DNA of 64,000 bases from a virus (taxonomy: Duplodnaviria; Heunggongvirae; Uroviricota; Caudoviricetes): the IMG/VR virus record IMGVR_UViG_2671180724_000008, one strand, 5' to 3'. Made by a program: the position numbers and the translations under genes. Below are positions 19,061-47,326 of the stretch, piece by piece (the stretch's first letter is position 1; each line of letters starts with the position of its first letter). The notes beneath the pieces were generated by a model. That model worked only from the letters and a program-made list of their open reading frames with translations. It searched no databases and was not told where the DNA came from.

Positions 19061-22000
19061 ATGAAGGCACTGATGGTTCGAACTGACTTCTCACTTGGGG
19101 AGTCGGCTTTAAAAGCGGAAAACGCGGTGAAGATTGCCAGAGAAGCTGGCTACACCGCTGTAATTTCAGCAGATAGCATGAATATTGCGAGTGTTATTCC
19201 ACTACAACGTGCCGCTGGTGACGACATGGCGGTTATTTGTGGTGTGAAACTAAATATCGTTGATGATCCCACATACGAGTACCGGGCTAAACTTGCTAAA
19301 GAGTCTAAGGGATGTATGGAATCATTAGAGCGAGGACGTAACTACTCGTTTACCGCTCTAATTAAAAATGAGCAAGGATATCGCGACATCTGCGAACTAA
19401 TGACGGTGGCCAACACACGAGAACAGTTCTACTTTGTACCGCGTCTCTCGCTCGAACAGTTGGTTTCTACATATGCCAAAGGCAACATCATCCTGCTCAC
19501 TTCCGACATCGGTAGCGTGTTCCAACGCAACGATTTTGCAAAAATCATAAGCACACTGATTACAGCGGGTGGAAAAGACAACTTCTATAGTGTGGTTTAT
19601 CCGCACCCTACCCCATTCTACGACCAGATTAACGTCCGGGCGATGAAAGTCGCCAGCGCATTGAAAATAGAGCCAGTGGCGTTCTATCCCGCTTATTACG
19701 AATCGATCGACGATGCAGACATTAAAGACATTGCGCACATGGTTACGAACAACATCAAAATCGACCAGCCGCATCGTCTGCGTATCCCCCACCAGCGAGA
19801 TAACGCCGTCAATGGTCGCCGCCATCTCCTTGAGGCTCTTAAAGCCTTCTCCGTTCGCATGGATGTGCCGGTAACAGCTGCAATGGCCTCAACAACGCAG
19901 GATACCATTATCGATGCCTGCACATGGCGCTGGCATGAATTGCCGCCAGCACTGCCAAAGATGGCAGACGACGAGCCTGCAACGCTTATGAAACTGGCTG
20001 TTGCAGGGCTGCGTAAACGTCTTACCACAAAAGAGTTTGGCTACACACCACCTGCTTCTGAGAACAGGGTTTATGTTGAGCGGCTAAAGTACGAAATGGA
20101 CACGCTGACTCGCCTGGGATTTTGTGGTTACTTCCTGATGGTACGCGATCTGATGAATCACAGCCGTGAAACTGGCATTCCTGTCGGGCCTGGTCGTGGT
20201 TCCTCCGCTGGATCTCTGGTGGCATGGTGCATAGGCATAACCAACGTCGACCCAATCCGTCACGGTCTTCTGTTTGAACGTTTCATCAACCCTGAGCGTC
20301 TCGACTTGCCGGATGCGGATTTGGACTTCAGCCAGGCACGTCGCCATGAAGTGATCGAGTATTTGAATGAACGCTACGGCGAAGATTACGTTGCGGGTAT
20401 TCCGAACTTCACATATCTGGGCGCAGCCTCTGCACTACGTGACACCGCTCGTATTTATGGTGTGGAGTCCGCAGATATGGCGGTATCAAAAGAACTGAAG
20501 AACGTCGAGGATGATAGCCTTCCATTGGAAGAACTGCGCGAACAACTGGCAAGTCTCGACAAATACGCAACAAAATATCCTGATGCATTCAATGCAGCCT
20601 GCAAGTTACAAAGCCTTATGCGTGGCTTTGGTAGACATGCGGCAGGGATGATCGTAGCAGGTGTTCCTCTGACAGAACGTACACCGGTTGAGCGCCGTGG
20701 TGACGCGCGTTGTATCGCATTTGACAAGCGTTACTGCGAGGCTATGGGCCTAATTAAGCTGGACGTGCTTGGCCTGGCAACTCTCGATTTGCTCGATAGT
20801 GCAAAACGCTACATAAAAGAGAACACAGGTGAAGATATCAATCTTGATGCCATTTCTCTTGAGGATCGCAAGGTGCTGGATGGTTTTGCTGCTGGGTACA
20901 CTCAAGGTGTTTTCCAGCTTGAATCAGGCCCAATGCGCAAGCTGCTTAAAGATTTAGGTGGTGGAATTGAGCCAATGAGCTTTAAAACGGTTGTTGCTAC
21001 GACTGCGCTCTTCCGGCCGGGGCCAATTCAGTCAGGCATGTTGGATGATTATGTTTCTGTCGCCAAAGGCTTTATGACGCCGGAATCATTACACCCCGTT
21101 CTTGATGAACTTACCGCAGAAACAAATGGCGTGATTCTCTATCAGGAACAGACGATGAACGCGACTCGATTGCTTGCTGGCTTCACAATGGCTGAAGCTG
21201 ACGGTGTTCGTAAAGCGATCGGCAAAAAAGACATGGAAAAAATGAAGAGCATGGGCGAGAAGTTCATCGTTCAGGCTCAAGCTGGCTGGATAGACGTTGA
21301 GCTGGAAGATGGCACTACACAGCGCATTCACCGTGCGGAACATTTTAAATGCGAAGACGGAACTCTGAAAACTGTCGAAGAGGCACTTGAGTACGGCGCA
21401 AAACTACCTATAAACGCAGTACGCGTTACAGCGTCACATCCAGGGCTATCAGAGATGAAAGCGAAGGAGATCTGGACCGCATTCGAAAAGAATGGTGCCT
21501 ACCAGTTCAACAAATCACACTCTGTTGCTTACTCCTTAATCAGTTATCAATCTATGTGGTTGAAAACTCATTATCCCGCAGAGTTTTTCGCTGCTGCTCT
21601 CACTATTCTTGGCGAAGATAAACACCAGGGGCTGGTTAAAGATGCGCTGACCTATGGTATTCGCGTATTGCCACCAGACGTTAACGTGTCATCTAACCGA
21701 ATCGAGATCCGCACGCTTGAAGATGGCAGCCAGGTGCTGTATGCGCCCTTCTCTGCTGTGAAAGGTTGTTCTGAGAATGGCTGCCAGGCCATCATGAGAG
21801 CGCGAGAAAAAGTTGGCGGCAAATTCGAGTCACTGGCGCAATTCGAAGAAGCTGTCGAGAAACGTGCCTGTAATAGTCGAGTGCGCGAATCACTGCAAAA
21901 AGTAGGGGCGTTTGCATCCATCGAGCCAGGTAGTCTGCCAGCAACTGATCCAGAGCGTCTCCGCGACCAAGCTGAATTGATGGGAAACCTTGTCATAGAC

Positions 22001-22579
22001 GCAGTTAAAGCCTCACGTCCGTTTGAGATGAACCCCAAACGTTCGGCTGAGATTAACGTGCTCATGACACGGATGGCGGCTGAAATGGGATTAGGTGATG
22101 AACTAATCCGCCCTAGCATTGGCATTAAGCCGAAAATCATGATCATTCTGGACAATGCAAACGGCAATGATGCTCGAACCGGTTACTTTATGGAGAACGG
22201 ATACGACGATTTTAAGGCCAAGCTGTTGACGGCTGGGGATTTGCGCATGGGCGATCTCTATGTCACAGGCGTTTGCAAAAAGGTGAAAGACAAAGAAAAG
22301 GACTACACCAAAGACGAGATCGGCCAGTTCACCGACTTTATGCGTGAAGAGATCAATCTGGTGCGCCCGACCTATGTGCTGACGTGTGGCAGCCGGGCAA
22401 CGGCATTGTTTAACAACAAAAACAAGCCATCCGATTTGGTCGGCAGGAAGGAGTACCTTCCAGACCTTGACGTTACTGTCTTTTACGGGTTTAACCCCAA
22501 CATTCTTTACTTCAGACCTGAAGAGGGAGAACGACTAGAAGCGATATTAGCCGACGTAGCAGAAACCATTAAGACGTGA
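19061..22579 (+). CDS. dnaE: DNA polymerase III alpha subunit (DnaE-like replicative polymerase)
   Basis: 1172 aa; core motifs GPGRGSSAGSLVAWCIGIT and NPERLDLPDADLDF typical of DnaE. Confidence 0.9.
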   Translation: MKALMVRTDFSLGESALKAENAVKIAREAGYTAVISADSMNIASVIPLQRAAGDDMAVICGVKLNIVDDPTYEYRAKLAKESKGCMESLERGRNYSFTALIKNEQGYRDICELMTVANTREQFYFVPRLSLEQLVSTYAKGNIILLTSDIGSVFQRNDFAKIISTLITAGGKDNFYSVVYPHPTPFYDQINVRAMKVASALKIEPVAFYPAYYESIDDADIKDIAHMVTNNIKIDQPHRLRIPHQRDNAVNGRRHLLEALKAFSVRMDVPVTAAMASTTQDTIIDACTWRWHELPPALPKMADDEPATLMKLAVAGLRKRLTTKEFGYTPPASENRVYVERLKYEMDTLTRLGFCGYFLMVRDLMNHSRETGIPVGPGRGSSAGSLVAWCIGITNVDPIRHGLLFERFINPERLDLPDADLDFSQARRHEVIEYLNERYGEDYVAGIPNFTYLGAASALRDTARIYGVESADMAVSKELKNVEDDSLPLEELREQLASLDKYATKYPDAFNAACKLQSLMRGFGRHAAGMIVAGVPLTERTPVERRGDARCIAFDKRYCEAMGLIKLDVLGLATLDLLDSAKRYIKENTGEDINLDAISLEDRKVLDGFAAGYTQGVFQLESGPMRKLLKDLGGGIEPMSFKTVVATTALFRPGPIQSGMLDDYVSVAKGFMTPESLHPVLDELTAETNGVILYQEQTMNATRLLAGFTMAEADGVRKAIGKKDMEKMKSMGEKFIVQAQAGWIDVELEDGTTQRIHRAEHFKCEDGTLKTVEEALEYGAKLPINAVRVTASHPGLSEMKAKEIWTAFEKNGAYQFNKSHSVAYSLISYQSMWLKTHYPAEFFAAALTILGEDKHQGLVKDALTYGIRVLPPDVNVSSNRIEIRTLEDGSQVLYAPFSAVKGCSENGCQAIMRAREKVGGKFESLAQFEEAVEKRACNSRVRESLQKVGAFASIEPGSLPATDPERLRDQAELMGNLVIDAVKASRPFEMNPKRSAEINVLMTRMAAEMGLGDELIRPSIGIKPKIMIILDNANGNDARTGYFMENGYDDFKAKLLTAGDLRMGDLYVTGVCKKVKDKEKDYTKDEIGQFTDFMREEINLVRPTYVLTCGSRATALFNNKNKPSDLVGRKEYLPDLDVTVFYGFNPNILYFRPEEGERLEAILADVAETIKT

Positions 22580-22586
22580 TCCCATA

Positions 22587-22612
22587 AACATGGCCTCTAT
22601 GGCCATGTTTTC
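22587..22612 (+). terminator. Rho-independent terminator (AACATGGCC-tcta-TGGCCATGTT then T-rich)
   Basis: Hairpin after dnaE stop. Confidence 0.6.
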
Positions 22613-22704: not shown

Positions 22705-23136
22705 ATGATCACCGATATTTACGAGAAAATAATGTCTGATCTCGAGTTTGACCGAGACAATCTGGAGGAAGTCTGGCGTAGACAACCCCGCCTTTTAATG
22801 GAGTATGGCTCAAAACTCGCTCATGCAGAAAGAAGTGTCGCAGAGGCAAAACTTAACCTTGAAGCTGTTGAAGCAAAGCTATACGACACAGAGCGTAAGA
22901 ACTTGAGTATGAACGGCATTAAGTTCAACGAGTCTGTACTGGACGCTAAGGTTAAAACAAACCCACAGTATCTGTCTAAACGGCAGAAGTTGGATGAAGC
23001 ACGGCACATCGCAGACATATACAAACATGCTGTCGCCGCCTTTTCGCATCGCCGAGACATGATCGTTCAGGCGTCGAAGATGGCCATCGTTGAGTTAGAT
23101 CGATTAGGCTCTGAACGCTTTATTACTCCCCGTTGA
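22705..23136 (+). CDS. Hypothetical coiled-coil protein
   Basis: 143-aa ORF with conserved AAAGGAAAGCACATG context. Confidence 0.5.
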   Translation: MITDIYEKIMSDLEFDRDNLEEVWRRQPRLLMEYGSKLAHAERSVAEAKLNLEAVEAKLYDTERKNLSMNGIKFNESVLDAKVKTNPQYLSKRQKLDEARHIADIYKHAVAAFSHRRDMIVQASKMAIVELDRLGSERFITPR

Positions 23137-23253
23137 TTTTTGATAGATAATAAGTAAGTACTGATCTATCATTTAACAGCTCGAAAGAGCCACGAATGAA
23201 CGAAAGCCCAACGCGCATAGCGCCATCGGCCAAATCACAACAAGGAGAAACAC

Positions 23254-24276
23254 ATGTCTAAGACATTACTTGATTTGCTTAACAAAACTCGTGAAGACAT
23301 TGCCGCCAAACGTGGCAAAAACACTGATTTGACCCGCTTAAAAGACGGCATCAACTATATCCGCATCTTCCCTAATAAAGACGACCCGAATGGTAAGTTC
23401 TTCCAGACTTTTGGTATGCACTACATTAAGTATCAGAACGAGGAAGGTAAAGAAGCAACCAATGCTTATATTTGTGAGCAACATACTCACGGTCGCGCTT
23501 GTCAGCTATGCGAAATGGTGATGGAAGGTCGCGCTCGTCACAAGGGTAACAAAGCAATGGAAGAGCGCATCGGTCAAATGCGTGCAACCCCTCGCTACCT
23601 GGTAAACGGCATTCTTTCAACTCGTGAGGATTTCTCCGATGCAGAGAAATGTCAGTTAATCGAACTGCCTTCCACTGTGTTCGATGATATCTGCAAAGCA
23701 ATCACCGAAGACATCGCTGACGATATCGGCAATCCATTAAGCAAAGAGGAAGGTTACGCATTTCAAATTAAGCGCACAGGCTCTGGTCGCGATACAGAAT
23801 ATGACGTTTCACCAAAACGTAAAGTCTTCAAAGGTGATATCGAAGATAAATTCTGGAACAACCAACATGACCTGATTGCTTATGTGAATCAGGCCGATGA
23901 AACTCGCCTTCTTGCGACAGTTCGCACTATGGGTCGTCTGATTGGCATCGCTGCACCAACTGCCACTGCATCGGCACCAGCAATTTCCTCAACAGCGAAA
24001 ACATCGGCCTCTGCACTGCCTGGATTTGGCTCGATCACTGGTCATACGGAAGGAGCGACGGCTGTAGCAACCGCCCACACTCCAGCTTCTGAACCAACCA
24101 GTCTGGTTGATGAAGAAGTCCTGCGAGCAATGGAATCTGAATTTAAATCAGAAACAAGTTCTGCTGCCACATCAGCCAAAGAGTCTGAAGCAGACGCAAC
24201 GACATCTGTAGCAGCCGCATCTGCGGCGGAAGATGAAGGTATTGATGACCTGCTGAAAGAACTGGAGTCTCTGTAA
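23254..24276 (+). CDS. Putative single-stranded DNA-binding protein (gp32-like)
   Basis: Cys/His cluster CEQHTHGRACQLCE and acidic Ala/Ser-rich C-terminal tail; position between polymerase and recombination genes. Confidence 0.4.
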   Translation: MSKTLLDLLNKTREDIAAKRGKNTDLTRLKDGINYIRIFPNKDDPNGKFFQTFGMHYIKYQNEEGKEATNAYICEQHTHGRACQLCEMVMEGRARHKGNKAMEERIGQMRATPRYLVNGILSTREDFSDAEKCQLIELPSTVFDDICKAITEDIADDIGNPLSKEEGYAFQIKRTGSGRDTEYDVSPKRKVFKGDIEDKFWNNQHDLIAYVNQADETRLLATVRTMGRLIGIAAPTATASAPAISSTAKTSASALPGFGSITGHTEGATAVATAHTPASEPTSLVDEEVLRAMESEFKSETSSAATSAKESEADATTSVAAASAAEDEGIDDLLKELESL

Positions 24277-24292
24277 TCCCATTACGTGACCA

Positions 24293-24321
24293 GTAAGGCG
24301 TCTACGGACGCCTTACTTTTT
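24293..24321 (+). terminator. Rho-independent terminator (AAGGCGTC-tacg-GACGCCTT then TTTTT); member of AGGCGTCC hairpin family
   Basis: Hairpin plus T-run; lies inside the 5' end of track ORF 24286. Confidence 0.7.
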
Positions 24322-24336
24322 GGAAGGAATGTACCG

Positions 24337-25281
24337 GTGAATTATCTCTTCGTAGATGGCAATAGCCTGGGTTATTACCACCAACAATCTGACAAATTGC
24401 ACAACGGCGAAATGGAAGTACAGGCTGCTTTCGGCTTTGTTAAGAACGTCCGTCGTTATGCCTCCATCCTCCATGCCCGACCTATGATTCTTTGGGATGG
24501 ATTTAGTGACAAGCGTCGCGACTTTTACCCGGACTACAAAGCAAATCGCGACGACGATCCTGATATGAAAAAGATGAAGGAAGGCTTTGCTGTCCAGAAG
24601 CCATACATCCTCAAAATGATGACCGCGCTTGGTGTTAACCAAATCATTGCAAAAGATGCAGAAGCGGATGATCTGGCCGGGCTGCTGGTATCCCGCATGG
24701 CACCGCAGCCAACCGTTGAACACATCTATCTGTTAACAGGCGATAGCGACTGGCTTCAGTTAGTTCGCGAAAACGTAAGCTGGGTAAGCCTGCGTGAAGA
24801 CGCCAAAAACAAGCAGGTTAATTTTGAGCAATTTGCGGAGCTGACAGGATTCGCCACGCCTCGCGCATTTTTGGAAGCAAAAGCATTACAAGGCGATAAC
24901 TCGGACAACATTAGCGGTGTTGGTGGCATTGGTGCTGGCGGCGCGAAAGAGCTGCTGCATGAATGGGGAAGTGTCGCAACGATGGTACGCGGCATCAACG
25001 ACGGCTCAATCGTGGTTAATAAAGGGCGTCATAAGACCGCCTTCAACAAACTAGCGAAGAATGCCTTCAACGAGAAAACAGGCTGTCGAATGCTCGAAGC
25101 GTTCAAGAGAAACATCACGCTAATGAACCTGATTGAGACGAAGTTTCCGCCTACCGAAATCGAAACAATCAAAGGCAATCGTGACGTGAAAGCATTCGAG
25201 CAACTGTGCTACGAGCTGAATTTCCGTTCGTTCCTTGAAGACCTTGAAGTGTTTGTTCTTCCATTCGAAAGGTATTGCTAA
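24337..25281 (+). CDS. 5'-3' exonuclease / flap endonuclease (FEN family)
   Basis: H3TH-type motif GDNSDNISGVGGIG; start reassigned to in-frame GTG at 24337 after the terminator with GGAAGG RBS. Confidence 0.8.
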   Translation: MNYLFVDGNSLGYYHQQSDKLHNGEMEVQAAFGFVKNVRRYASILHARPMILWDGFSDKRRDFYPDYKANRDDDPDMKKMKEGFAVQKPYILKMMTALGVNQIIAKDAEADDLAGLLVSRMAPQPTVEHIYLLTGDSDWLQLVRENVSWVSLREDAKNKQVNFEQFAELTGFATPRAFLEAKALQGDNSDNISGVGGIGAGGAKELLHEWGSVATMVRGINDGSIVVNKGRHKTAFNKLAKNAFNEKTGCRMLEAFKRNITLMNLIETKFPPTEIETIKGNRDVKAFEQLCYELNFRSFLEDLEVFVLPFERYC

Positions 25282-25547
25282 TGCTTAAATCGATTATTAA
25301 TGGCGCTACCACCACCCCTACCCAACTGGCAAAAGAGATTGTCTTTTATCACGGTGAGTACGCTGTCATCGCACTGCCGTCAATTCTAGGCGCTGCCGGA
25401 ATGAAAGCGACAGATCGCGAGTTTGGATTAGTCAGCGAGCAGGTCGTAAAAATCCTCGCTCGTGTATCCAAACACCTTAACCACGATGCGATTGTATTCG
25501 ACGAATCCGCCGCTTTAAAACGAATCAACAAAACAAAAGGAGCCTGA
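25275..25547 (+). CDS. Hypothetical protein
   Basis: 90-aa ORF coupled to flanking genes. Confidence 0.4.
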   Translation: MLMLKSIINGATTTPTQLAKEIVFYHGEYAVIALPSILGAAGMKATDREFGLVSEQVVKILARVSKHLNHDAIVFDESAALKRINKTKGA

Positions 25548-25549
25548 TC

Positions 25550-26623
25550 ATGGCAAAAGGAAAATCCGCACTGGCACTTGCTCTGAAAAAGAAAATCGGT
25601 AGCAACGACGAAATTCAGAAAGTAACCCATTGGATTGACACAGGCTTTCCTCCGTTAAACAAAGCTATTTCAGGTCGTTACGATGGCGGTTTCCCATGTG
25701 GTCGTATCGTAGAAGTATTCGGGCCGCCAAGCGCGGGGAAAACCTTTTTGGCAACAGCAGCAATGATCTCCGCTCAGAAACAAGATGGTCTGGCGGTATT
25801 CCTCGATCATGAGAACAGTTTTGACGTTGGCCTGGCGGTAGCCAATGGCCTGAATGCAGATGAGGATGACGGCCAGTGGGTATACAAGCAGCCTGATACC
25901 TTCGAAGACTCTGTAGAGTTGATCGGCACAATACTTAAATTGGTACGTGATGAAGAGCTTATCCCTGAATCAGCACCTATCTGTATCGTGGCTGACTCAC
26001 TTGCGTCTATGGTTCCGAACTCCAAAGCCGAGAAGTTCGAAAAGATGGCTGAAGGCACTGCCAAAGACAAAGATCAGCTAAACATGAACGACAATACGGC
26101 GCTTGCTCGTGCGACGAGCGCGAACTTCCCCACTCTGGCTTTGTGGGCACGCAAATATAACGCCTGCATCATCTTCTTGAATCAGGTTCGCACAAAAATC
26201 GGTGTAATGTTTGGCGACCCTACGACGTCACCAGGCGGCGATTCACCGAAGTTTTACGCTTCTGTGCGCATCCGTCTCGGTGCATCGGTGATGAAGGATG
26301 GTAAAGAGAAGATCGGTCAGGACGTAGGCGCAGAGTGCATCAAAAACAAAGTTGCACCACCGTATGGCAAATGCACCTGGAAATTCTACTTCGATCCTAC
26401 TCGTGGCCTCGACGTTATCGAGTCGCTCGTCGAGTACATGCTGGAAGAAGGATACCTGCCAAAGAACGCCAGCGGGCGCGTAGAAATTGGTGACAAGAAA
26501 TACACCAAATCACAGATCGTCGAGATGTATCGGGAGAAGCCACTAGCTGAAATCATTGCGGCTTTACAGGCAATCGACGACCGGAGATCAAAAGACAATC
26601 CCACCGAGTCAGTAGAAGAGTAA
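25550..26623 (+). CDS. RecA/UvsX-family recombinase
   Basis: GRIVEVFGPPSAGKTFLA closely resembles the RecA Walker A region. Confidence 0.85.
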   Translation: MAKGKSALALALKKKIGSNDEIQKVTHWIDTGFPPLNKAISGRYDGGFPCGRIVEVFGPPSAGKTFLATAAMISAQKQDGLAVFLDHENSFDVGLAVANGLNADEDDGQWVYKQPDTFEDSVELIGTILKLVRDEELIPESAPICIVADSLASMVPNSKAEKFEKMAEGTAKDKDQLNMNDNTALARATSANFPTLALWARKYNACIIFLNQVRTKIGVMFGDPTTSPGGDSPKFYASVRIRLGASVMKDGKEKIGQDVGAECIKNKVAPPYGKCTWKFYFDPTRGLDVIESLVEYMLEEGYLPKNASGRVEIGDKKYTKSQIVEMYREKPLAEIIAALQAIDDRRSKDNPTESVEE

Positions 26624-26628
26624 ACACA

Positions 26629-26652
26629 AGGCGTCCACAGGACGCCTTTTTT
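26629..26652 (+). terminator. Rho-independent terminator (AGGCGTCC-acag-GACGCC then TTTTTT)
   Basis: Hairpin plus T-run. Confidence 0.75.
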
Positions 26653-26665
26653 ATCTCTTGAAAAT

Positions 26666-31496: not shown

Positions 31497-32029
31497 ACCG
31501 CTGACAGCATACACAATCAACTACCGCTGATAGCATATCGAGAGTCTATCTTACCGCTCACAGCATACTTTACTCGATTTTTTACCGCTGACAGCATACT
31601 TAAGACATTGCATGAATAATGTGTACCGGTATGGGTATAACCAGAACAAAATTACCGCTGGCAGCATACGAAGGTCTGACATATACCATTAATTACCGCT
31701 GATAGCATATCCAAACAAAAATTCCTCAATAAAACACCGCTGACAGCATACGTTCTATCAGGGAGCAGCAGGCAATAAATGCCTTTCACTACAAGCAATC
31801 AGCGCAATAGCAATAGAATGTTAGTGAGCGCAAACCTATATGGAATGCACTCTTCGAGGTTAGTAACCACTGGGGAGGTATGACAGAGCATTGAGTGGTG
31901 ATAGATGATTTACCGCTCACAGCATACGTTCATCTCACTATACCGCTGGTAGCATATCTTTAACCGTTCACAGCATACTTTTCAGAAAAATAGCCGCTGA
32001 TAGCATACATTTCACCGCTGACAGCATAT
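31497..32029. repeat. Iteron array downstream of repA (incA-like): about 12 copies of 17-bp TACCGCTGACAGCATAC in two clusters
   Basis: Direct imperfect repeats at roughly 31497, 31522, 31553, 31583, 31653, 31694, 31735, 31911, 31941, 31962, 31991, 32013; irregular spacing. Confidence 0.85.
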
Positions 32030-33123: not shown

Positions 33124-33141
33124 GTGGACACCTTTGTCATT

Positions 33142-34343: not shown

Positions 34344-35429
34344 ATGACTTTGCCATACGGCGTCATTTCTGACTGCCACTACCACAAATGGGATGCGTTC
34401 TCCACGACGAACGCTGAGGGGCTTAACTCCAGACTTGAAATACAGTTGGAAGCAACGAAAGAAGCAGCCATCGCCATGAAGAAGGCCGGTTGTAAGTACA
34501 TGTTGGTTGCCGGTGATACATTTCACGTCCGAGGAACTGTGTCCCCTTCTGTTTTGCATTACGTAACTGAAACGTACAAGTGGATTATCAACGAGCTTGA
34601 TCTGACAGTAGTAATGCTGGCCGGTAATCACGATCTTGAAACCAACGATTCAGTATATAGCGCCAACGCAGCAGCATCGCTGAGTTCTATCGGCGTGGTA
34701 ATCGTATGTGGCAAGCGCCCACACTCAATAAAAATTGGTGATGTGACTGTCCACCTGATTAGCTGGCGTAACAATCATGCGGAGCTTATCAGCGATCTGA
34801 AAGCATTACGTAAGAGCGTAGAAGGTGATAATCATGACGTTGTTATCCATACATCCATTAACAAAGCCATTCCAACAATGCCTGACGTCGGTATCGATGC
34901 GCAGGAGTTAAAGGATATCGGCTTTCGTCTCGTGCTTAGTGGGCATTACCACAACCACAAAGAGGTCATTCCTGGTGTTATCAGTGTCGGTGCGCTGACC
35001 CATCAAAATTGGGGAGATGTTGGATCTCTGGCTGGTTACATGATCGTAAACCCGGACGGCAGTTTCAGTCACTACGAAACCAGTGCGCCTAAATTCATTA
35101 ACCTGGAAGATTATGTTGCCGATGACCAAATTCGCGGCAACTACGTGCGTTTCCGCGCCGTAATTGAGAACGATGAAGAAGGCATTAAGTACCAGAATAT
35201 CCTCAAAACAATGGGCGCAAAAGGTGTCGTGTGCAACTTCATCCGTAAGTCATCAATGATGGAAGGGACAGCAAGCACAACGGAAACCAGCAAAATCGAT
35301 AGCTTGGGAGAGTCGGTATCTGCTTATTGCAAGATTGTCCACGATACTGACGGCGGATTTGATCTGAGCAAGTTGGATATTTTGTGTCAGGAAATCCTCA
35401 CCGAAGCGGAGAGTTCGGAGGCTGTGTGA
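34344..35429 (+). CDS. SbcD/Mre11-family nuclease (calcineurin-like phosphoesterase)
   Basis: Metallophosphatase motifs SDCHYH, VAGDTFH, LAGNHD, SGHYH. Confidence 0.8.
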   Translation: MTLPYGVISDCHYHKWDAFSTTNAEGLNSRLEIQLEATKEAAIAMKKAGCKYMLVAGDTFHVRGTVSPSVLHYVTETYKWIINELDLTVVMLAGNHDLETNDSVYSANAAASLSSIGVVIVCGKRPHSIKIGDVTVHLISWRNNHAELISDLKALRKSVEGDNHDVVIHTSINKAIPTMPDVGIDAQELKDIGFRLVLSGHYHNHKEVIPGVISVGALTHQNWGDVGSLAGYMIVNPDGSFSHYETSAPKFINLEDYVADDQIRGNYVRFRAVIENDEEGIKYQNILKTMGAKGVVCNFIRKSSMMEGTASTTETSKIDSLGESVSAYCKIVHDTDGGFDLSKLDILCQEILTEAESSEAV

Positions 35430-35658
35430 GGCAAAGTCGTTATGGGAGCTTTCGAGACTTTGCCATCACGATGAAAAGACTTGAACGAGGCCAGACGGTG
35501 ATGTTTCACAAGCCCTACCCGCCACAAGGAAATCCCGTAGCGTTTTATCTTGGAAGGTTAACAAGAAAAGGCGTATTGAGACGCAGATCCTTCCCGGCGC
35601 ATACGGAGTTCAGATTGAAAGAAGGTCAAAAGCTAACACACGGTATCAAAGGTGTTAT

Positions 35659-37575: not shown

Positions 37576-38308
37576 ATTAAGCCGCTCGCAGTTTTTGCAG
37601 GTATTTGCAGTGATGCAGTCGATAAAACTGATCAATGGGCATACTTCCAATAGTGCGGCTCCACGTATTCTGTGGGGCAGCAATAATATTGACAAAGCAC
37701 AATTCGCCCCGTTGCTTGGTCTAATATCCGAGACACCATTGATGCAAAGTTTGGAATCACTACCGTCTGGATGTATTGCGCCGATCTTGATTAATCCTTT
37801 TGTTGAGGGGGGATATCTTCCCAACGTCGGACCTGGGTTTATCGCAACCCATGAAACTGAAGATCTTAACATTAATAGCGAAGGGTTCTTTGGGGCAATG
37901 GATGCGCATCTCTGTATGGCTTTCACGAACCTTATTCGACTTGCCAATAAGCGGGCGGATAGTTTGGCATCGCCAGGTGATGCTTTTACTGGTTTCCTTA
38001 TCCAAAGGAGGGATAAAAAGTACAGTGCGGACAAACTACAGTTTGTTGGTAAGTATGGAGAAATGGTAGAAATCGAACTTCAGCTCCCTCATGTTTTAGC
38101 AAACGATAGTGCAGACAGTCGGAGGCTGTTGGGCATCATGCGTCATTTCATAGCAAGTGGCGTTAAACATGCCGTAGATAAACGTGTCACGCAGGAAAAT
38201 GAGTATTCAGACTTTGCAAGCTATCCCCAACCAACGTTGCAAACGGCAATAGTAGCCAATTCGTTGGAGGCGAGATTATTGGAAAACCCTATATGGGGAA
38301 CATGGTAA
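37565..38308 (+). CDS. Hypothetical protein
   Basis: 247-aa ORF overlapping SbcC-like stop. Confidence 0.5.
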   Translation: MSFKLSRSQFLQVFAVMQSIKLINGHTSNSAAPRILWGSNNIDKAQFAPLLGLISETPLMQSLESLPSGCIAPILINPFVEGGYLPNVGPGFIATHETEDLNINSEGFFGAMDAHLCMAFTNLIRLANKRADSLASPGDAFTGFLIQRRDKKYSADKLQFVGKYGEMVEIELQLPHVLANDSADSRRLLGIMRHFIASGVKHAVDKRVTQENEYSDFASYPQPTLQTAIVANSLEARLLENPIWGTW

Positions 38309-38317
38309 GGAGACTAT

Positions 38318-38887
38318 ATGAGTAAAAAAATCAGCGTAGTTGGTGTTGATCCCTCAATGAGCAACTTTGGGCTTGCTGTGGGCACTTTAGACCTTGAAAC
38401 GGACGAACTTGAGATTCACGGCCTTACTCTTGTTGAGACTAAAGCGGGGAGTAACAAAAAGACAGTTCGTGTGAACAGTGACGATCTGCGCCGTGCCAGT
38501 GAAATATGGCGTGTTGCGAAGCCAATCATTGATAAGGCAAATATGGTTTTTTGTGAGCTACCGGTTGGGAGCCAAAACTCTCGTTCGCAGACGTCTTACG
38601 GTATTTGTATCGGTGTACTTGCGTGTGTGGATAAGCCATTGATCCAGGTCACTCCAAACGAAATTAAGCATTTTGTCGGCAATAAACTTACTACATCGAA
38701 AGAAGAGATTATCCAGTGGGCTACGAAAAAACACCCTAAAGCACCGTGGCTGCGTCGTAAGCAATCTGGACAGGATGTTCTCGTGAACAAAAACGAACAT
38801 TTGGCTGATGCGGTGGCTGCCATCCATACCGGTATGCAAACGGATCAGTTCCGCCAGGTGCGCGATGTTCTTAAGTCTCTCATTTGA
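38318..38887 (+). CDS. RuvC-family Holliday-junction resolvase
   Basis: N-terminal VVGVDPS and C-terminal EHLADAVAAIHTG resemble RuvC catalytic regions. Confidence 0.6.
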   Translation: MSKKISVVGVDPSMSNFGLAVGTLDLETDELEIHGLTLVETKAGSNKKTVRVNSDDLRRASEIWRVAKPIIDKANMVFCELPVGSQNSRSQTSYGICIGVLACVDKPLIQVTPNEIKHFVGNKLTTSKEEIIQWATKKHPKAPWLRRKQSGQDVLVNKNEHLADAVAAIHTGMQTDQFRQVRDVLKSLI

Positions 38888-38960: not shown

Positions 38961-41276
38961 ATGATAAGCATCGTAAAACGTAACGGCCAAACAGAGCCGT
39001 TATCCGAAGAAAAATACAACCGCGTCGTAATGTATGGCGTAGAAGGCATTCGTGGTGTAAGCGCATCCGCTGTAGCAATGGGAGCTGCGGCCAGCATTTT
39101 TGATGGGATTACCACCAGCCAGTTGCATGAGGCTTTGGTTAAATCTGCCGCTGATTTGATCTCACCAGATGCACCAAATTACTCGCAGGTGGCTGCCCGC
39201 CTGAACATTTTTAAAATCCGCAAAGATGCCTTCGGTCGTTACGACTATCCGAACTTCTACCAACACATTGTCAAGAACGTTAACAAGGGCGTCTATGACA
39301 AGGATTTGCTGACACATTATTCATTTGAAGAGATCGAAGAACTCGGCAATTACATTAAGCCTAAACGTGACGATCTTTTTGGCTATGCAGCTACGGTGCA
39401 ATTGCAAAGCAAATATCTCGTTCAAAACCGTGTTACTGGTGAGATTCATGAGGGGCCGCAACATATCTATATGCTGGTAGGCATGTGTCTGTTCCAGAAT
39501 TGGGAAGACGACTGCGCTGGCAAAACACGTATGGAGATGGTCAAAGGTTTCTATGACGTTACAAGTACGTTCAAACTGTCTCTGCCCACACCAATCATGG
39601 CCGGCGTCCGTACTCCAACCCGTCAGTTCTCCAGTTGTGTGCTGATTGAGTCTGGCGATAGTCTGAAAGGTATTAGTGCAGCTTCAGCCGCAATTATCGA
39701 CTACGTTTCACGTCGTGCTGGAATTGGTATTGGTTTTGGCCGTATCCGTGCGCTGGGCAGCGAGATCCGCAATGGTGAAGCCACCCATACCGGAGTTATT
39801 CCATTCCTGAAGCATTTCCAGACGGCTGTTAAATCTTGTTCGCAAGGTGGTGTTCGTGGTGGCGCAGCAACAGCGTTTTACCCGATCTGGCATCTTGAAG
39901 TTGAAAGTCTGCTGGTGGTGAAAAATAACCGTGGTATTGATGAAAACCGCGTTCGCCATCTTGATTACGGCGTCATGAGTAACCGTCTAATGTACCGTCG
40001 ACTCGTCAGAAGCGAGAACATCACTCTGTTCAGCCCGCATGATGTGCCTGATATGTACGAAGCCTTCTTCACAGACCAGGATCTGTTTGAAAAGCTGTAC
40101 CATAAATACGAAGCCGATGATTCAATTCGCAAGAAGTCAGTACCTGCCATTGAGCTGTTCTCATCTCTGATGCAGGAACGAGCGTCCACGGGCCGAATTT
40201 ATATTGCGAACGTCGATCATATTAATGAGCATGGCGCTTTCATTCCTGCTCTTGCACCTGTCCGCCAGTCAAACCTGTGCATGGAGATCACTCTACCCAC
40301 TCGTCCACTGGCATTTACCGACGACCCGAACGGTGAGATCGCGCTATGCACTTTATCCGCTTTTAACCTCGGAGCCATCCGTTCACTGGAGTCTCTTAAA
40401 GAGGTGGCGTTCTATGCCGTTGCTGCACTGGATTCGTTACTGGATTATCAAGACTATCCGATGGAGGCAGCCGAAGTGCCTGCCAAAGCTCGTCGTAGCC
40501 TGGGAATCGGTGTAACCAACTTTGCTTATTACCTGGCAAAGAATGGCGTTCGTTATTCTGATACCGCTGGCAATAAACTGGTGCATGAAACGTTCGAAGC
40601 TATCCAGTATTACCTTCTTGATGCCAGCTGCCGACTTGCTGAAGCAAAAGGTGAGTGTGACTGGTTTGAGCAGACCAAGTACGCAATTGGTCAGTTGCCG
40701 ATCGACCATTACCGTTCTTCATTAGACGAAAGTGACGAAACCAACTTTGAGTTAAAGATGCCGTGGGAAGAACTGCGTGAACGTATTGCGAAATACGGCC
40801 TTCGCAACTCCACACTGACGGCACAAATGCCATGTGAGACTTCCAGCCAGATCACTAATTCCACCAACGGCATCGAACCGCCTCGTGGCCCGGTGTCGGT
40901 GAAATCTTCTAAGGACGGCATCGTTAAGATGGTCGTGCCTGAGTTTGAAAAACTGAAGGAACAGTATGAATACCTGTGGGATATGCCGGACAACCGCGGC
41001 TATCTGACAAAGGTGGCGATCATCCAGAAGTTCTTCGACCAGGCTATTTCAGCCAATACCAACTATGACCCTTCTCGCTTTGAAGGCGATAAAGTCCCAA
41101 TGATGACGCTACTGTCAGATTTGCTTCTCGCCTACAAGATGGGAGTTAAAACGCTTTACTACCACAACACCAGAGATGGGGCAGGAAAGCGTGATGACGA
41201 CGAACCGCAGAATCCACTGACGCAAGCTGTAGCCGTCGAGCCAGAAGATGAGTGCGACGGAGCCTGCAAAATCTGA
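38961..41276 (+). CDS. nrdA: Ribonucleotide reductase large subunit (class Ia, NrdA)
   Basis: 771 aa with N-terminal ATP-cone-like segment; followed by NrdB. Confidence 0.9.
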   Translation: MISIVKRNGQTEPLSEEKYNRVVMYGVEGIRGVSASAVAMGAAASIFDGITTSQLHEALVKSAADLISPDAPNYSQVAARLNIFKIRKDAFGRYDYPNFYQHIVKNVNKGVYDKDLLTHYSFEEIEELGNYIKPKRDDLFGYAATVQLQSKYLVQNRVTGEIHEGPQHIYMLVGMCLFQNWEDDCAGKTRMEMVKGFYDVTSTFKLSLPTPIMAGVRTPTRQFSSCVLIESGDSLKGISAASAAIIDYVSRRAGIGIGFGRIRALGSEIRNGEATHTGVIPFLKHFQTAVKSCSQGGVRGGAATAFYPIWHLEVESLLVVKNNRGIDENRVRHLDYGVMSNRLMYRRLVRSENITLFSPHDVPDMYEAFFTDQDLFEKLYHKYEADDSIRKKSVPAIELFSSLMQERASTGRIYIANVDHINEHGAFIPALAPVRQSNLCMEITLPTRPLAFTDDPNGEIALCTLSAFNLGAIRSLESLKEVAFYAVAALDSLLDYQDYPMEAAEVPAKARRSLGIGVTNFAYYLAKNGVRYSDTAGNKLVHETFEAIQYYLLDASCRLAEAKGECDWFEQTKYAIGQLPIDHYRSSLDESDETNFELKMPWEELRERIAKYGLRNSTLTAQMPCETSSQITNSTNGIEPPRGPVSVKSSKDGIVKMVVPEFEKLKEQYEYLWDMPDNRGYLTKVAIIQKFFDQAISANTNYDPSRFEGDKVPMMTLLSDLLLAYKMGVKTLYYHNTRDGAGKRDDDEPQNPLTQAVAVEPEDECDGACKI

Positions 41277-41281
41277 CATAT

Positions 41282-41308
41282 GGTGGGGGGTATCCCCACC
41301 TTCTCTTT
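41282..41308 (+). terminator. Rho-independent terminator (GGTGGGG-ggtat-CCCCACC then T-rich)
   Basis: Hairpin after nrdA stop. Confidence 0.65.
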
Positions 41309-41381
41309 GATTTGTAAGCCTTGTTTAAACAAATAAGATAACAACTTGTTTAAACACATCAAAAAGCAAAAGGAAAAACAC

Positions 41382-42524
41382 ATGTCATATTCAACGTTCC
41401 GTTTGGGTGCTAATGATGCAACCAAAGAGCCTATGTTCCTCGGACAATCTGTCAACGTGGCACGTTACGATCAGCAAAAATACCGTGATTTTGAAAAGTT
41501 GATTGAACGTCAATTGTCTTTCTTCTGGCGGCCGGAAGAAGTTGATATTTCGAGCGATCGCATCGACTTCAATACGAAGCTGCGGGACCACGAACGCCAC
41601 ATTTTCCTGAGTAATCTCCGTTATCAAACGTTGCTCGATTCAGTTCAGGGACGTAGCCCAAATGCAACGCTGCTGCCGCTTATCTCTATTCCTGAACTGG
41701 AAACGTGGGTTGAAACGTGGTCTTTCTCTGAGACTATCCATAGCCGTAGCTACACCCACATTATTCGTGGCATGGTGGACGATCCGAGCATTGTTTTTGA
41801 CGGTATTGTTACGGATGAAGAAATCATCAACCGAGCGATCAGTATCTCTGCTGAATATGACAGGCTTTATGGGATGACATGCGAGCGCCAGTCGTTAGGT
41901 GAGAAGGAGTTTGAACGTCTGTACGTAAATGAATATGGCTGGGAGCCATACCCTTTGCACCGTCAGCTTTTCCGCACGTTGGTGTCCATTAATGCGCTTG
42001 AGGCGATCCGTTTCTATGTAAGTTTTGCATGTACGTTTGCCTTTGGCGAACGGAAGTTGCTTGAGGGTAACACCAAAATTATGCGCTTTATTGCCCGTGA
42101 TGAAGCTCTGCATTGCGAAGGAACTGAACGCATGATCCGCTTCATGCGTACCGGTCGAGAAGGTTTATTGTGGAAAGAGATTGCTGCTGATGAAGAAAAC
42201 GTCATTTACGACACCATGAAATCAGTCGCCGAACAAGAAATGAACTGGGCAGACTATCTCTTCAAAGACGGTTCGATGATTGGTTTAAACGCGGATATTC
42301 TCAAAACCTATGTAAAATACCGCACCAATCTGGCTATGAATCGTCTTGGCCTGAAGGCTTTATTTCCAGAAGTTACCACTGATCCGCTGGTCTGGATGAA
42401 CAAGTGGTTGTTAACCGACACACTGCAAATTGCACCACAAGAGGCAGAGCAAAGCACATATCTGGTAGGTCAGATCGATTCTACCGTGGATAAGGCTTCT
42501 CTAAGCCAGTTTGCAGACCTGTAA
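41382..42524 (+). CDS. nrdB: Ribonucleotide reductase small subunit (NrdB)
   Basis: Ferritin-like di-iron protein directly after nrdA; start set at 41382 by AAAAGGAAAAACACATG context. Confidence 0.85.
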
Positions 42525-43642: not shown

Positions 43643-44746
43643 GTGTCACTCCTTTTGAATCGTGAGCATACGAACGGTCAGGTAACAAACGCATCGTATG
43701 CAAAAGTTATTGAGACGGTGCTTAAAAGCGGCGTGCAGGCTGATGATCGCACAGGCACTGGTACTTTAAGCACCTGCTACGTTCCCTCTTACTACATGCT
43801 TACTGGTGGGACTGTGCCGCTTATTTCTGGAAAGGCGGTAAATCTTAAGCCACTACTTGTCGAACTTGAGTGGTATCTGAAAGGCACGGGCAACATCCAA
43901 TTTCTCAAGGATAACGGCGTTAAGATTTGGGATGCATGGGCCGATGAGAATGGCGATTTGGGGCCGGTTTACGGTAAGCAGTGGCGTCGCTGGGAAGATA
44001 CCCGCATCGTGAGCCATAGTGAGTATCTGAGCAAGATCGATACGTTCCGTGAACGCGGGTACAAAGTCGAGGGATACCTGGGTATCAGTGAAGATCGCGT
44101 AGTGCTGTCCCGTGAAATCGATCAGCTACAGCGTATTGTCGATACACTGCGCACGAACCCTACCGATCGTCGCATCATGCTTAACGCATGGAACGTAGGC
44201 GAGCTTGAGGATATGAAACTGCCACCTTGCCACTTTGTCTTCTCTTTGTGGAGTCGTGAGCTTGATTTTGAAACCCGTTTAACGATGGCAACTGACATTG
44301 GTCTTCAACACAGTCGCCTCGGTTACGAGTCTATCTACACCAAGATGCTATACGATCTGGAGATGGTCGGCAGTGTTACTGAAACTGAACTGGATGAACT
44401 TGGAATCCCCAAACGCATCCTCAACTCCTGCCTCGTACAGCGTAGCGTAGACACTTTTGTTGGTATGCCATTCAATATTGCTGGTTATGGCATTCTCACT
44501 CATTTTCTCGCGAAGATTACGGGTCACATGGCCGGTGCCTTTGTGCATTTTGGCTTTGACGTGCATTTGTACAATAACCACATGGAAAGTGTGTGTGAGC
44601 TAATGAAACGACAGGCTCCAGAGCATTCAGATCCGGTCGTTATTTTCCCTCATGAATGGTCTGAGCTGGATGATTTCAAATGGGACGATATTCTGATTCT
44701 TGGCTATGACCCTCTACCGTGGATCAAGGTTCCAGTGGCGGTGTGA
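43643..44746 (+). CDS. thyA: Thymidylate synthase (ThyA) with two insertions
   Basis: Motifs DRTGTGTLS, LPPCHF, QRSVDTFVGMPFNIAGYGILT; about 100 aa longer than E. coli ThyA. Confidence 0.9.
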   Translation: MSLLLNREHTNGQVTNASYAKVIETVLKSGVQADDRTGTGTLSTCYVPSYYMLTGGTVPLISGKAVNLKPLLVELEWYLKGTGNIQFLKDNGVKIWDAWADENGDLGPVYGKQWRRWEDTRIVSHSEYLSKIDTFRERGYKVEGYLGISEDRVVLSREIDQLQRIVDTLRTNPTDRRIMLNAWNVGELEDMKLPPCHFVFSLWSRELDFETRLTMATDIGLQHSRLGYESIYTKMLYDLEMVGSVTETELDELGIPKRILNSCLVQRSVDTFVGMPFNIAGYGILTHFLAKITGHMAGAFVHFGFDVHLYNNHMESVCELMKRQAPEHSDPVVIFPHEWSELDDFKWDDILILGYDPLPWIKVPVAV

Positions 44747-44747
44747 T

Positions 44748-45161: not shown

Positions 45162-45634
45162 AGATGATAGCTGCTGTTGGCCGTAATTATGAGATCGGTA
45201 GAGCGAACGAACTGCCCTGGCGTTGCTCTACCGATCTGAAGCTATTTAAGAGACTCACCAAAAACGCCACTGTCGTTATGGGACGTAAAACGATGGAAAG
45301 TCTCAAACGCCCTCTTCCAGAGCGTCATAATCTCGTTTTGACGCGCTCTCATGGCTTTGTACCAAATGGATTCTACCCTGCTGGTGTGGATGATGTGTTG
45401 CGATTACCAGAGCCTGTGTGGGTGATTGGCGGGGAACAAATTTACTCGCTATTCATGCCGCATGTTGAAGAGATTTGGCTCTCCCACATCGGCGTTGATG
45501 TACCAAACGCTGATGCATTCTTCCCGGCAAGCATGATGCGTAACTTAGGCTTTGTGCCTGTTGAAACAGCTTATACCCAACGAGCCAGCGAGGAAGAGCC
45601 TGGCTTTTCGCAGATCGTATACAGAAGGTCGTAA
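45158..45634 (+). CDS. folA: Dihydrofolate reductase
   Basis: N-terminus MIAAVGRNYEIG...LPW and VVMGRKTMESL resemble FolA. Confidence 0.85.
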   Translation: MKMIAAVGRNYEIGRANELPWRCSTDLKLFKRLTKNATVVMGRKTMESLKRPLPERHNLVLTRSHGFVPNGFYPAGVDDVLRLPEPVWVIGGEQIYSLFMPHVEEIWLSHIGVDVPNADAFFPASMMRNLGFVPVETAYTQRASEEEPGFSQIVYRRS

Positions 45635-46278
45635 TGGATTACCGGATTGGGATCACTGGTGCTCAGGGCAGTGGGAAAACAACCCTGGCTAAATATATCG
45701 ACAAACATTACGGAATCCCTTACGTGGATGCTGGTGTCGGAAGTTTGATGAGCCGCCTCGGTGTTCGAGTAGGTGAGTCTATGCCTCTATATGAGCGGCT
45801 TCAGATTCAAATGGAAATAGCAAAGCATATAGAGCTACTTACGCGTGGTGTTGAAGGCTTTGTTATCGATCGTACACCTGCTGATGTTATGGCCTACACG
45901 TTGGATTTGGTCGGCCATACAAATGAAGAGCGGTGTATTGAGTTAGCCCTCGATATCGAAAAGTTTTGCCACAAAACTGCCATTTCAAACTTTAACGCCA
46001 TTGCTGGCTTACGCCCGGGAGTCGCTCTCTCAGAGCGAGATTACTTGCGATCACAACGAGCATCATTAGACCGTCTGTATGTTGCTCGTATTGATGCGTT
46101 GATGTGCGGGGAACTGACAAAAATTCACCTGCATCCGCAAAGGGGAGATCTGCAAACCTTCGTCGTTTCCAACCGATATCGCACGGTTGAAGCAAGAGCC
46201 AGATCAGTGATGAGAATGCTAGATAACGCTGTAGAAAAGATAGAAAACCGGTTCTGTGGCCGAGTGACCGTTCATTAG
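45634..46278 (+). CDS. P-loop NTPase, putative (deoxy)nucleoside monophosphate kinase
   Basis: Walker A GITGAQGSGKTT at N-terminus; context among nucleotide-metabolism genes. Confidence 0.5.
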   Translation: MDYRIGITGAQGSGKTTLAKYIDKHYGIPYVDAGVGSLMSRLGVRVGESMPLYERLQIQMEIAKHIELLTRGVEGFVIDRTPADVMAYTLDLVGHTNEERCIELALDIEKFCHKTAISNFNAIAGLRPGVALSERDYLRSQRASLDRLYVARIDALMCGELTKIHLHPQRGDLQTFVVSNRYRTVEARARSVMRMLDNAVEKIENRFCGRVTVH

Positions 46279-46339: not shown

Positions 46340-46759
46340 ATGTTTAGTGAAATGTTGCTTGAAGATGAACTGGATCGGAAAACAACAGAGGCTTTGATTC
46401 GTGTGGCGGACGAACATTCTCGGTCGTTTATGAGCGATCGAGAGGCTCGTCTGGCTATTCGTGCCATATTCGAAACTGCGCAAGGGCTTGTTGGCGCACA
46501 AGTAGGTGAAGCCATTAACATCGCCATGTCTCAGTTCAGTGAAGGCAGTAAAAAGCCTCTGTTTCCTATGCATTTGATGCTGGCTGGTGGCACGGTGCTT
46601 TATATCTCTGTTTGTCTGGATAGCAACCAAATCAATATTCTCAACACTGCGTCAGGTAAGTGGAAAGATCCGATTGTCTGTGAAACCAGTGAAGAAACTT
46701 TGAAAAAAGCGGCTCAATTTGTACGTAGCGCACTACTTAAGGGCGCTAAGAAGTTGTAA
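46340..46759 (+). CDS. Hypothetical protein
   Basis: 139-aa ORF. Confidence 0.45.
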   Translation: MFSEMLLEDELDRKTTEALIRVADEHSRSFMSDREARLAIRAIFETAQGLVGAQVGEAINIAMSQFSEGSKKPLFPMHLMLAGGTVLYISVCLDSNQINILNTASGKWKDPIVCETSEETLKKAAQFVRSALLKGAKKL

Positions 46760-46768
46760 GGAGTTCTG

Positions 46769-47326
46769 ATGACAACGATTGTTGCAGGCATCGATATCGA
46801 GTCTACGGGACTGGATTTCCTTGCTGGTCATAAAATTATTGAAATCGCAATTACCCGCTATGAACTGGAGACACAGAGACATATTGATAGTCTGGAGATG
46901 CGTTTTAACCCTCGCAGAAACATAGATCCGAAAGCTCAAGCCGTTCATGGCATTTCATTGGAACAGCTCGCAGCTGAACCTTTGTTGTCAAATCATGCCA
47001 GCGAAATTGGCGCTTATATGGGGGCATGTAGTGCGTGGATTGCTCATAACGGCGAAGCGTTTGATATACCATTTATTCGGCACGAGTTTTCAGGGTATGG
47101 AGTAAGACTGCCAGACGTTCCTGTTATAGATACTATGTTATCGGGATTGTGGGCCACAGAAGACGGTAAACGCCCCCGCCTTGAAGAGTTGGCCTTCTCT
47201 CTTGGCTTTATATACGATCATGCCAAAGCACATAGTGCCTTATATGACACAAACTTAATGATGCAATGCTTCTTTAAGGCACGTAATAAGTACGGATTTT
47301 TTAAATTACCCTCTGAAATTGTGTAA
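46769..47326 (+). CDS. DnaQ-like 3'-5' exonuclease (DEDD), candidate proofreading subunit
   Basis: Exo motifs DIESTGLD, HNGEAFDIPF, HSALYD. Confidence 0.8.
   Translation: MTTIVAGIDIESTGLDFLAGHKIIEIAITRYELETQRHIDSLEMRFNPRRNIDPKAQAVHGISLEQLAAEPLLSNHASEIGAYMGACSAWIAHNGEAFDIPFIRHEFSGYGVRLPDVPVIDTMLSGLWATEDGKRPRLEELAFSLGFIYDHAKAHSALYDTNLMMQCFFKARNKYGFFKLPSEIV

Follow-up and report, generated by a model that had tools for sequence, protein, structure and literature searches.

In cellular DnaE1 polymerases, the OB fold and the tau-binding domain couple the enzyme to the template single-stranded DNA and to the clamp loader. An "unusual variant" of this family, in which the OB and C-terminal domains were swapped for an archaeal-type uracil-DNA glycosylase (UDG) domain, was reported from Yersinia pestis and Salmonella enterica by Timinskas et al. 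2014 (PMC3919608). UDG-like domains on family-A phage polymerases were proposed, on the model of vaccinia D4, to be intrinsic processivity factors (Kazlauskas and Venclovas 2011, PMC3201878). The supergroup of SSU5/pHCM2/pMT1 phage-plasmids and the related phages nickie and RHEph10 were described by Pfeifer et al. 2021 (PMC7969092). The DNA analysed here (IMG/VR record IMGVR_UViG_2671180724_000008, 64,000 nucleotides, hereafter the window) was a member of this supergroup and showed no difference from it. It encodes a DnaE-family polymerase that has lost all the metal ligands of its PHP domain and ends in a UDG-like domain, and a co-inherited 185-amino acid (aa) DEDDh exonuclease that would most likely supply 3'-5' proofreading in trans.

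Nucleotide identity and gene order matched those of the reference members, which identified the window as roughly 64 kb of an E. coli phage-plasmid of the SSU5/pHCM2 type. The open reading frame (ORF) of the dnaE-like gene shared 98.4% nucleotide identity with Escherichia phage CMS-2020a, 96.6% with PhiR41_1, and 84.9% with Salmonella phage SSU5. Gene order was common to the window, PhiR41_1, and SSU5, and also to the more distant Pseudomonas phage nickie. An earlier note on this DNA, made from the sequence alone, had missed both the known type of the element and the UDG-like domain of its polymerase.

The dnaE-like gene (19061-22579, plus strand) encodes a 1172-aa C-family DNA polymerase, homologous to the Pol III alpha subunit, as the earlier note had stated. 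Four Pfam domains lay above their cut-offs: DNA_pol3_alpha (1e-73), the finger domain (3e-44), HHH_6 (2e-16), and PHP (8e-13). NCBIfam TIGR00594 scored 632 bits (cut-off 434), the best PDB matches were the Pol III alpha subunits of Taq, M. tuberculosis, and E. coli (E 1e-109 to 1e-122), and a full-length match to phrog_405 "DNA polymerase" was found. E-values of this size leave no room for chance matches. None of the NCBIfam alpha equivalog cut-offs was reached, with, for example, 679 versus 1002 bits. The N-terminus quoted in the earlier note began at the second Met; the ORF itself begins MKALMVRTDF, and the upstream Met was taken as the start because a homologue with 60% identity (P0008, MKSVMIRTDF) aligns there.

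The protein has the conserved DnaE-type core order of PHP, Pol3, and paired helix-hairpin-helix (HhH)2 domains. In the palm, thumb, and fingers (aa 309-740; 19985-21280, plus strand), alignment indicated that the polymerase active site is intact. Residues D418, D420, D568, K566, R407, R379, G380, and S381 corresponded to E. coli D401, D403, D555, K553, R390, R362, G363, and S364, respectively, and these eight palm and active-site residues were invariant in 39 clade members. Relative to Taq and M. tuberculosis DnaE, the fingers carry an insertion of about 52 aa (aa 741-791; 21281-21433, plus strand), which appeared as a gap in the alignment to Taq alpha. It was followed by the distal fingers and the (HhH)2 duplex-binding domain (aa 792-955; 21434-21925, plus strand), which aligned to Taq residues 789-946 and contained the Pfam HHH_6 match at aa 866-955. 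The insertion site was occupied by inteins or LAGLIDADG domains in relatives such as P0042 and P0113, and many other relatives were split there, leaving a separate HhH and UDG protein of about 390 aa; these included proteins of Acinetobacter plasmids annotated as "UDG family protein". The long relatives P0042, P0113, and P0133 were also considered as Rosetta-stone fusions of an exonuclease to DnaE, and this was rejected, since their extra length consisted of inteins or LAGLIDADG domains.

In the PHP domain (aa 1-300; 19061-19960, plus strand), all nine canonical metal ligands were replaced. Alignments by HMMER (to M. tuberculosis DnaE1) and by MAFFT placed M5, R7, E14, S39, K63, S96 or a gap, S148, P210, and Y212 at the ligand positions H, H, D, H, E, H, C, D, and H. 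The M. tuberculosis ligands, H14, H16, D23, H48, E73, H107, C158, D226, and H228, agreed in residue identity with this alignment. MAFFT alignment with E. coli DnaE and the clade gave 0/9 ligands for the window protein, 0-1/9 for almost all clade relatives, and 4/9 for E. coli. The earlier note had reported an apparent absence of the paired histidines (M5 and R7 in the present alignment) and had named an intact metal site as the result that would count against it; the loss was more extensive than it had claimed.

The residues that replace the ligands (R, E, T, R, P) were themselves conserved in the clade, which suggests that the PHP domain is structural, retained for folding or contacts rather than for catalysis. 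With all its PHP ligands lost, the polymerase would be incapable of editing its own products. The distant DnaE-UDG relatives P0133 and P0134 keep 8/9 ligands and carry the UDG-type tail, which points to decay of the PHP site within the present lineage. The genomic locus of P0133 was not found in the viral contigs searched. The complete and clade-conserved loss of the PHP ligands is an addition of this analysis.

The window polymerase lacks the OB fold and the tau-binding domain that DnaE1 has, and a family-4 UDG-like domain (aa ~988-1172; 22022-22576, plus strand) was found in their place. Pfam at default thresholds gave no coverage of aa 956-1172. The AlphaFold2 model of the C-terminal domain, built with 33 homologues, had a pLDDT of 91.4, and its top Foldseek matches were the family-4 UDGs of T. 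maritima, S. tokodaii, and T. thermophilus and UdgX (E 2e-11, TM 0.65-0.77). The clade profile of the domain matched the S. tokodaii UDG (4zbx) at 6e-19, whereas the window sequence alone was below the UDG cut-offs of Pfam (18.8 versus 24.3 bits) and of TIGR00758 (34.6 versus 125.3). A weak match to phrog_17 (PolA) was also obtained. A word-indexed search with the domain returned six fragments, and an exhaustive HMMER search of representatives was used instead. The region was then found in 141 clusters. In every case it formed the C-terminal end of the protein, which was either as long as a DnaE (about 1080-1170 aa) or had about 390 aa and started just before the HhH domain.

The domain thus has the fold and the homology of a UDG, and lacks the catalytic and recognition residues and the 4Fe-4S cysteines of one. 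Motif A, GEAPG (GE[AQ]PG), is replaced by LDNAN, in which an invariant Asp, D1031, holds the acidic position. Where the Y-x-T-N motif has the Asn that recognises uracil, the window protein has Gly, and the residue varies across the clade. Motif B, HP, is replaced by N1145-P1146, with S, T, G, or H at the His position among relatives and an invariant Pro. The Fe-S cysteines are absent from the window protein, and CxxC is still present in some relatives. These substitutions indicate that the domain is probably catalytically degenerate. By analogy with the family-A phage polymerases, it would most likely be a built-in DNA-binding or processivity module, and not a glycosylase. The DnaE-UDG architecture has been known since 2014; its confirmation and the dissection of the domain are added here.

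The dnaQ-like gene (46769-47326, plus strand), 24 kb from dnaE, encodes a predicted 185-aa DEDDh 3'-5' exonuclease that consists of the catalytic domain only. It matched Pfam RNase_T (1e-20), with E. coli epsilon as the best PDB match (1.5e-10), and phrog_192 "DNA polymerase exonuclease subunit" (9e-51). Residues D9, E11, D99, H155, and D160 aligned with epsilon D12, E14, D103, H162, and D167, and were invariant in 85 homologues; the earlier note had rightly assigned all three Exo motifs to this protein. Proteobacterial epsilon, followed by PolC-exo and DinG-exo, were the nearest characterised relatives in PDB and NCBIfam, and the grouping with host-interaction nucleases that the note had raised as a counter-argument was not seen.

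The two genes were almost always inherited together. The UDG-type C-terminal domain occurred in 32 phage records. Of these, 31 were complete genomes (12 SSU5-like, 10 from Rhizobium phages, 6 from Pseudomonas, 2 from Stenotrophomonas, and 1 from Xanthomonas phages), and precisely these genomes gave the 31 best matches to the exonuclease (39-100% identity). Gene order and the spacing from dnaE to dnaQ (about 25-36 kb) were conserved. In PLSDB, 976 plasmids had the UDG-type tail and 882 had the exonuclease; by genus, the counts of tail and exonuclease were 346/343 in Klebsiella, 137/136 in Acinetobacter, 91/89 in Enterobacter, and 49/49 in Salmonella. This near-perfect co-inheritance favours a functional link between the two genes.

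The state of the PHP domain was compared with the presence of a DnaQ-like gene in three lineages, out of roughly 1,370 phage genomes that encode a DnaE. In the unrelated Cronobacter phage vB_CsaP_Ss1 (42 kb), a 189-aa DnaQ-like gene annotated as hypothetical overlaps the start of a 931-aa dnaE by 4 nucleotides (23301-26662, minus strand), and the PHP domain of this DnaE is degenerate. The DnaE of Streptomyces phage Aaronocolus has 9/9 PHP ligands, and no DnaQ-like ORF was found in the whole 49.6-kb genome. The pattern of Ss1 and Aaronocolus fits proofreading in trans and mirrors that of bacteria, in which PHP integrity anticorrelates with a separate epsilon, according to PMC3919608.

Because the alpha-binding tail of epsilon is missing, the exonuclease would have to be recruited in a different way. 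A candidate docking peptide, G176-FFKLP-181 (47294-47311, plus strand), lies just after the last exonuclease helix, at the position of the epsilon clamp motif QTSMAF. It is without the Gln of that motif, and F178 aligns with epsilon F187. Among 85 homologues, G was conserved in 72, F/L in 78, F in 75, L/I in 63, and P in 67, and the peptide was also conserved in distant orthologues. The DnaQ-like protein of the unrelated phage Ss1 ends in GMIKL. A speculative route of recruitment would be through GFFKLP, possibly by way of the host beta clamp or of the polymerase itself. On the polymerase, a candidate beta-clamp motif, Q970-AELMG-975 (21968-21985, plus strand; clade consensus DQxEL[ML]PGL), lies in a Pro-rich linker that joins the HhH domain to the UDG-like one, which is where the clamp motifs of DnaE are located, and its Q is at least 90% conserved. 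It was considered as an established internal clamp motif and was downgraded to a candidate, the segment aligned to QADMF not being conserved. Use of the host clamp and clamp-independent synthesis through the UDG-like domain are both possible.

A 139-aa ORF (46340-46759, plus strand) ends 10 nucleotides before the exonuclease gene and matches phrog_5373 (function unknown); no Pfam match was found for it. Its weak homologues are placed directly upstream of dnaQ (Pseudomonas phage nickie), overlapping it (Stenotrophomonas phage ANB28, Xanthomonas phage JGB6), or close to it (Rhizobium phage RHph_X66). AlphaFold2 modelling with close homologues only gave a pLDDT of 63.7 and no Foldseek match below E 0.2, and similarity to theta/HOT could not be shown from this low-confidence model. 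The ORF is a speculative candidate for an accessory partner, which perhaps also helps in recruiting the exonuclease.

Proofreading of the dead-PHP DnaE in trans by the DnaQ-like exonuclease is considered rather probable from the sequence comparisons above, and several observations weigh against it. The exonuclease scored far below the NCBIfam epsilon cut-offs (NF004316, 71.5 versus 196 bits; TIGR01406, 65.7 versus 222.7; TIGR00573, 52.7 versus 71.5); nonetheless, epsilon models were its top-scoring NCBIfam models. It stops at residue 185, whereas E. coli epsilon runs to 243, so the C-terminal segment that binds the alpha PHP domain is missing; the polymerase "core" of the earlier note, as a physical assembly, was not supported. 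Genomic co-occurrence is the one line of evidence that joins the two proteins, and within one syntenic clade it largely reflects common descent rather than independent events. The candidate clamp motifs are weak; MAFFT paired QAELMG with the E. coli helix 897-RAALMNSL and not with QADMF (920-924), and AlphaFold2 showed a helix there. The PHP sites of DnaE2 and DnaE3 are also dead, and PMC3919608 infers that both work without any proofreading. A dead PHP alone is not sufficient for the earlier argument from the PHP domain to proofreading in trans. The main alternative is an exonuclease that is independent of the polymerase and serves nucleotide salvage, host-DNA degradation, or repair and recombination, with a DnaE that has no dedicated proofreader or borrows the host epsilon. 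This is regarded as possible and less likely. It would account for the absence of an epsilon-type tether and for the position of the gene, which lies not beside dnaE but 24 kb away in a nucleotide-metabolism block with genes for ribonucleotide reductase (RNR), ThyA, dihydrofolate reductase (DHFR), and a deoxynucleoside monophosphate (dNMP) kinase-like protein. The recombination set of the element (RecA-like, Mre11/Rad50, and RuvC-like) could use such an enzyme, and the stand-alone 3'-5' exonuclease DexA of phage T4 acts in DNA breakdown. The main exception to co-inheritance points the same way: Y. pestis pFra/pMT1 keeps an intact 1174-aa dnaE without the exonuclease. However, the entire RNR-ThyA-DHFR-kinase-exonuclease block is gone from pFra (NZ_CP151628.1, 61601-64006), with an IS1541 transposase at the junction after the RuvC-like gene, and a block deletion in a decayed non-phage plasmid is not specific to the exonuclease. 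The family matches to Pol III epsilon and to "DNA polymerase exonuclease subunit", the co-retention with a dead-PHP DnaE across very divergent hosts, and the overlap of dnaQ and dnaE in phage Ss1 also argue against an independent enzyme.

Assignment of the exonuclease to defence, as a CRISPR-associated-type "DEDDh" accessory nuclease, has a very slight chance of being correct. The PADLOC model PDLC01247 "DEDDh" matched it at 8.7e-25, and a 2025 preprint lists DEDDh proteins among the predicted defence systems of SSU5-group phage-plasmids (10.1101/2025.09.12.675607). However, the PADLOC model, a generic DEDDh domain of 139 positions, is DnaQ-like too, neither the window nor the related genomes inspected showed any cas genes, and lytic relatives such as nickie have the gene as a conserved part of their replication and nucleotide module. 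The calls of the preprint for the SSU5 group probably refer to this gene and are probably false positives. It is also improbable that the UDG-like domain works as an active glycosylase, or as a sensor of uracil or modified bases, that is coupled to synthesis while the exonuclease removes the flagged bases. Such base surveillance would be in line with a true family-4 UDG homologue in which D1031 at the motif-A Glu position and the motif-B Pro are invariant and some relatives retain CxxC, and dUTP/dTTP control seems to matter to an element that encodes ThyA, DHFR, and a MazG/PRA-PH-like pyrophosphatase. Against it stand the Gly in place of the Y-x-T-N Asn, the N, S, T, or G in place of the motif-B His, the lost Fe-S cysteines, and the scores of the window sequence under the Pfam and NCBIfam UDG cut-offs. 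An extended form of trans proofreading is regarded as unlikely. It would make the locus a minimal, clamp-loader-independent Pol III-like replicase in which a dead-PHP DnaE has the degenerate UDG-like domain, in place of the OB and tau-binding domains, to hold DNA or sense uracil. A tail-less epsilon would be recruited in a new way, either with GFFKLP seated in the second cleft of the host's beta clamp or through docking on the UDG-like domain, possibly with the 139-aa ORF, and the result would be a second independently evolved alpha-epsilon proofreading core.

The replication, recombination, and nucleotide-metabolism genes of the window form a long plus-strand block. Each of the other replication genes named in the earlier note was confirmed. 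A DnaB-like helicase (3356-4696, plus strand; Pfam DnaB_C) is followed by a DnaG-like primase (4706-5959, plus strand; Pfam DNAG_N and Toprim_2), in an order identical in SSU5 and nickie. An ATP-dependent ligase is encoded at 7352-8674 and an RNase H at 50016-50660. Downstream of dnaE are a gp32-like single-stranded DNA-binding protein (SSB; 23254-24276, plus strand; Pfam gp32 6e-65) and a flap endonuclease (24286-25281, plus strand; Pfam 5_3_exonuc_N/C). A Rep3-type initiator (32029-33243, minus strand), ParA, and an integrase are also encoded. Pfam and PHROGs recognised no sliding clamp or clamp loader among the larger ORFs, and none is annotated in SSU5, nickie, or pFra, a search that did not exhaustively cover the small unknown ORFs. 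The element carries its own helicase, primase, SSB, flap endonuclease, RNase H, ligase, and DnaE-family polymerase, presumably for lytic growth.

A T4-like recombination set (22705-26623 and 34344-38887, plus strand) comprises the gp32-like SSB, RecA/UvsX-like, Mre11/SbcD-like, and Rad50/SbcC-like proteins, a RuvC-like resolvase, and a UvsY-like ORF with a weak match (22705-23136), and suggests recombination-dependent replication. The nucleotide-metabolism block includes the RNR (38961-42524) and the dNMP-kinase-like gene (45634-46278). The thymidylate synthase ORF (43643-44746, plus strand; 367 aa, GTG start) matched its Pfam model in two stretches and exceeds the 266 positions of that model, perhaps through an insertion or an overlong ORF call. 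Directly upstream of dnaE (15441-18880, plus strand) are genes for a CobT-like VWA protein of 702 aa and a CobS-like AAA_5 ATPase of 411 aa. Pseudomonas phage nickie, SSU5, and Y. pestis pFra have this pair at the corresponding place. Four tRNAs (Asn-GTT, Tyr-GTA, Thr-TGT, and Ser-TGA) were found at 10264-11265 (plus strand), in a non-coding stretch between the ligase and a minus-strand ORF; the SSU5 annotation shows tRNA-Asn only in the equivalent stretch.

The module is known, widely sequenced, and already annotated, with the PGAP names "dnaE" and "3'-5' exonuclease". The present finding is a correct reading of annotated genes together with a plausible, unproven functional link. Beyond the results noted above, the analysis adds that the exonuclease is tail-less and ends in a conserved peptide, that the two genes are inherited together almost without exception, and that a conserved small ORF lies upstream of the exonuclease. 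Phage-plasmids of the SSU5/pHCM2/pMT1 type occur in abundance among clinical Enterobacteria and Acinetobacter, some with resistance genes, and about 980 PLSDB plasmids carry the polymerase. A literature search for functional studies of the pHCM2/pMT1-type replicase found none, and a search on the DnaE-UDG fusion in phages and on the pHCM2/pMT1 polymerase found nothing beyond the 2011 and 2014 papers of the Venclovas group. If the tail-less DnaQ proofreads for DnaE, the pair would be a compact and tractable model for editing in trans without the canonical epsilon tether, it could show what a UDG fold does on a replicase, and the automated "defence system" labels on the exonuclease would be corrected.

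Comparison with known systems placed the window DnaE in the same family and architecture as the UDG variant of "DnaEX" from Y. pestis and S. enterica plasmids (Timinskas, Balvociute, Timinskas and Venclovas 2014, PMC3919608), with no substantive difference. The Y. pestis pFra protein shared 95.9% identity with it in the C-terminal domain. In the parts consulted, that paper gives the architecture in one sentence and does not discuss the PHP state, the phage-plasmid origin, or the co-inherited DnaQ-like gene. The E. coli Pol III core (alpha-epsilon-theta with the beta clamp; PDB 5FKU/5M1S) is alike in having a non-editing PHP domain and a separate epsilon-type DEDDh exonuclease, and the conserved short hydrophobic peptide after the window exonuclease fold lies where E. 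coli epsilon carries its clamp motif. In contrast to the E. coli core, the window exonuclease has no alpha-binding C-terminal segment and no theta was recognisable. The window polymerase also differs from E. coli alpha in the absence of the OB and tau-binding domains, so it would be unable to couple to the host clamp loader, and in its PHP ligands (0/9 versus 4/9 in the same alignment), and its internal clamp motif is a candidate only. The family-A polymerases of SPO1- and T5-like phages and vaccinia D4/A20 (PMC3201878) resemble it in carrying a UDG fold on a replicative polymerase where no sliding clamp can be recognised in the genome; in the window the UDG domain is C-terminal on a family-C polymerase, and the processivity role is putative in both. 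Mycobacterial and Thermus DnaE1, which proofread through their PHP domain, and the actinophage DnaE of Aaronocolus belong to the same polymerase family, have 9/9 PHP ligands, and need no DnaQ, and the window protein represents the opposite state.

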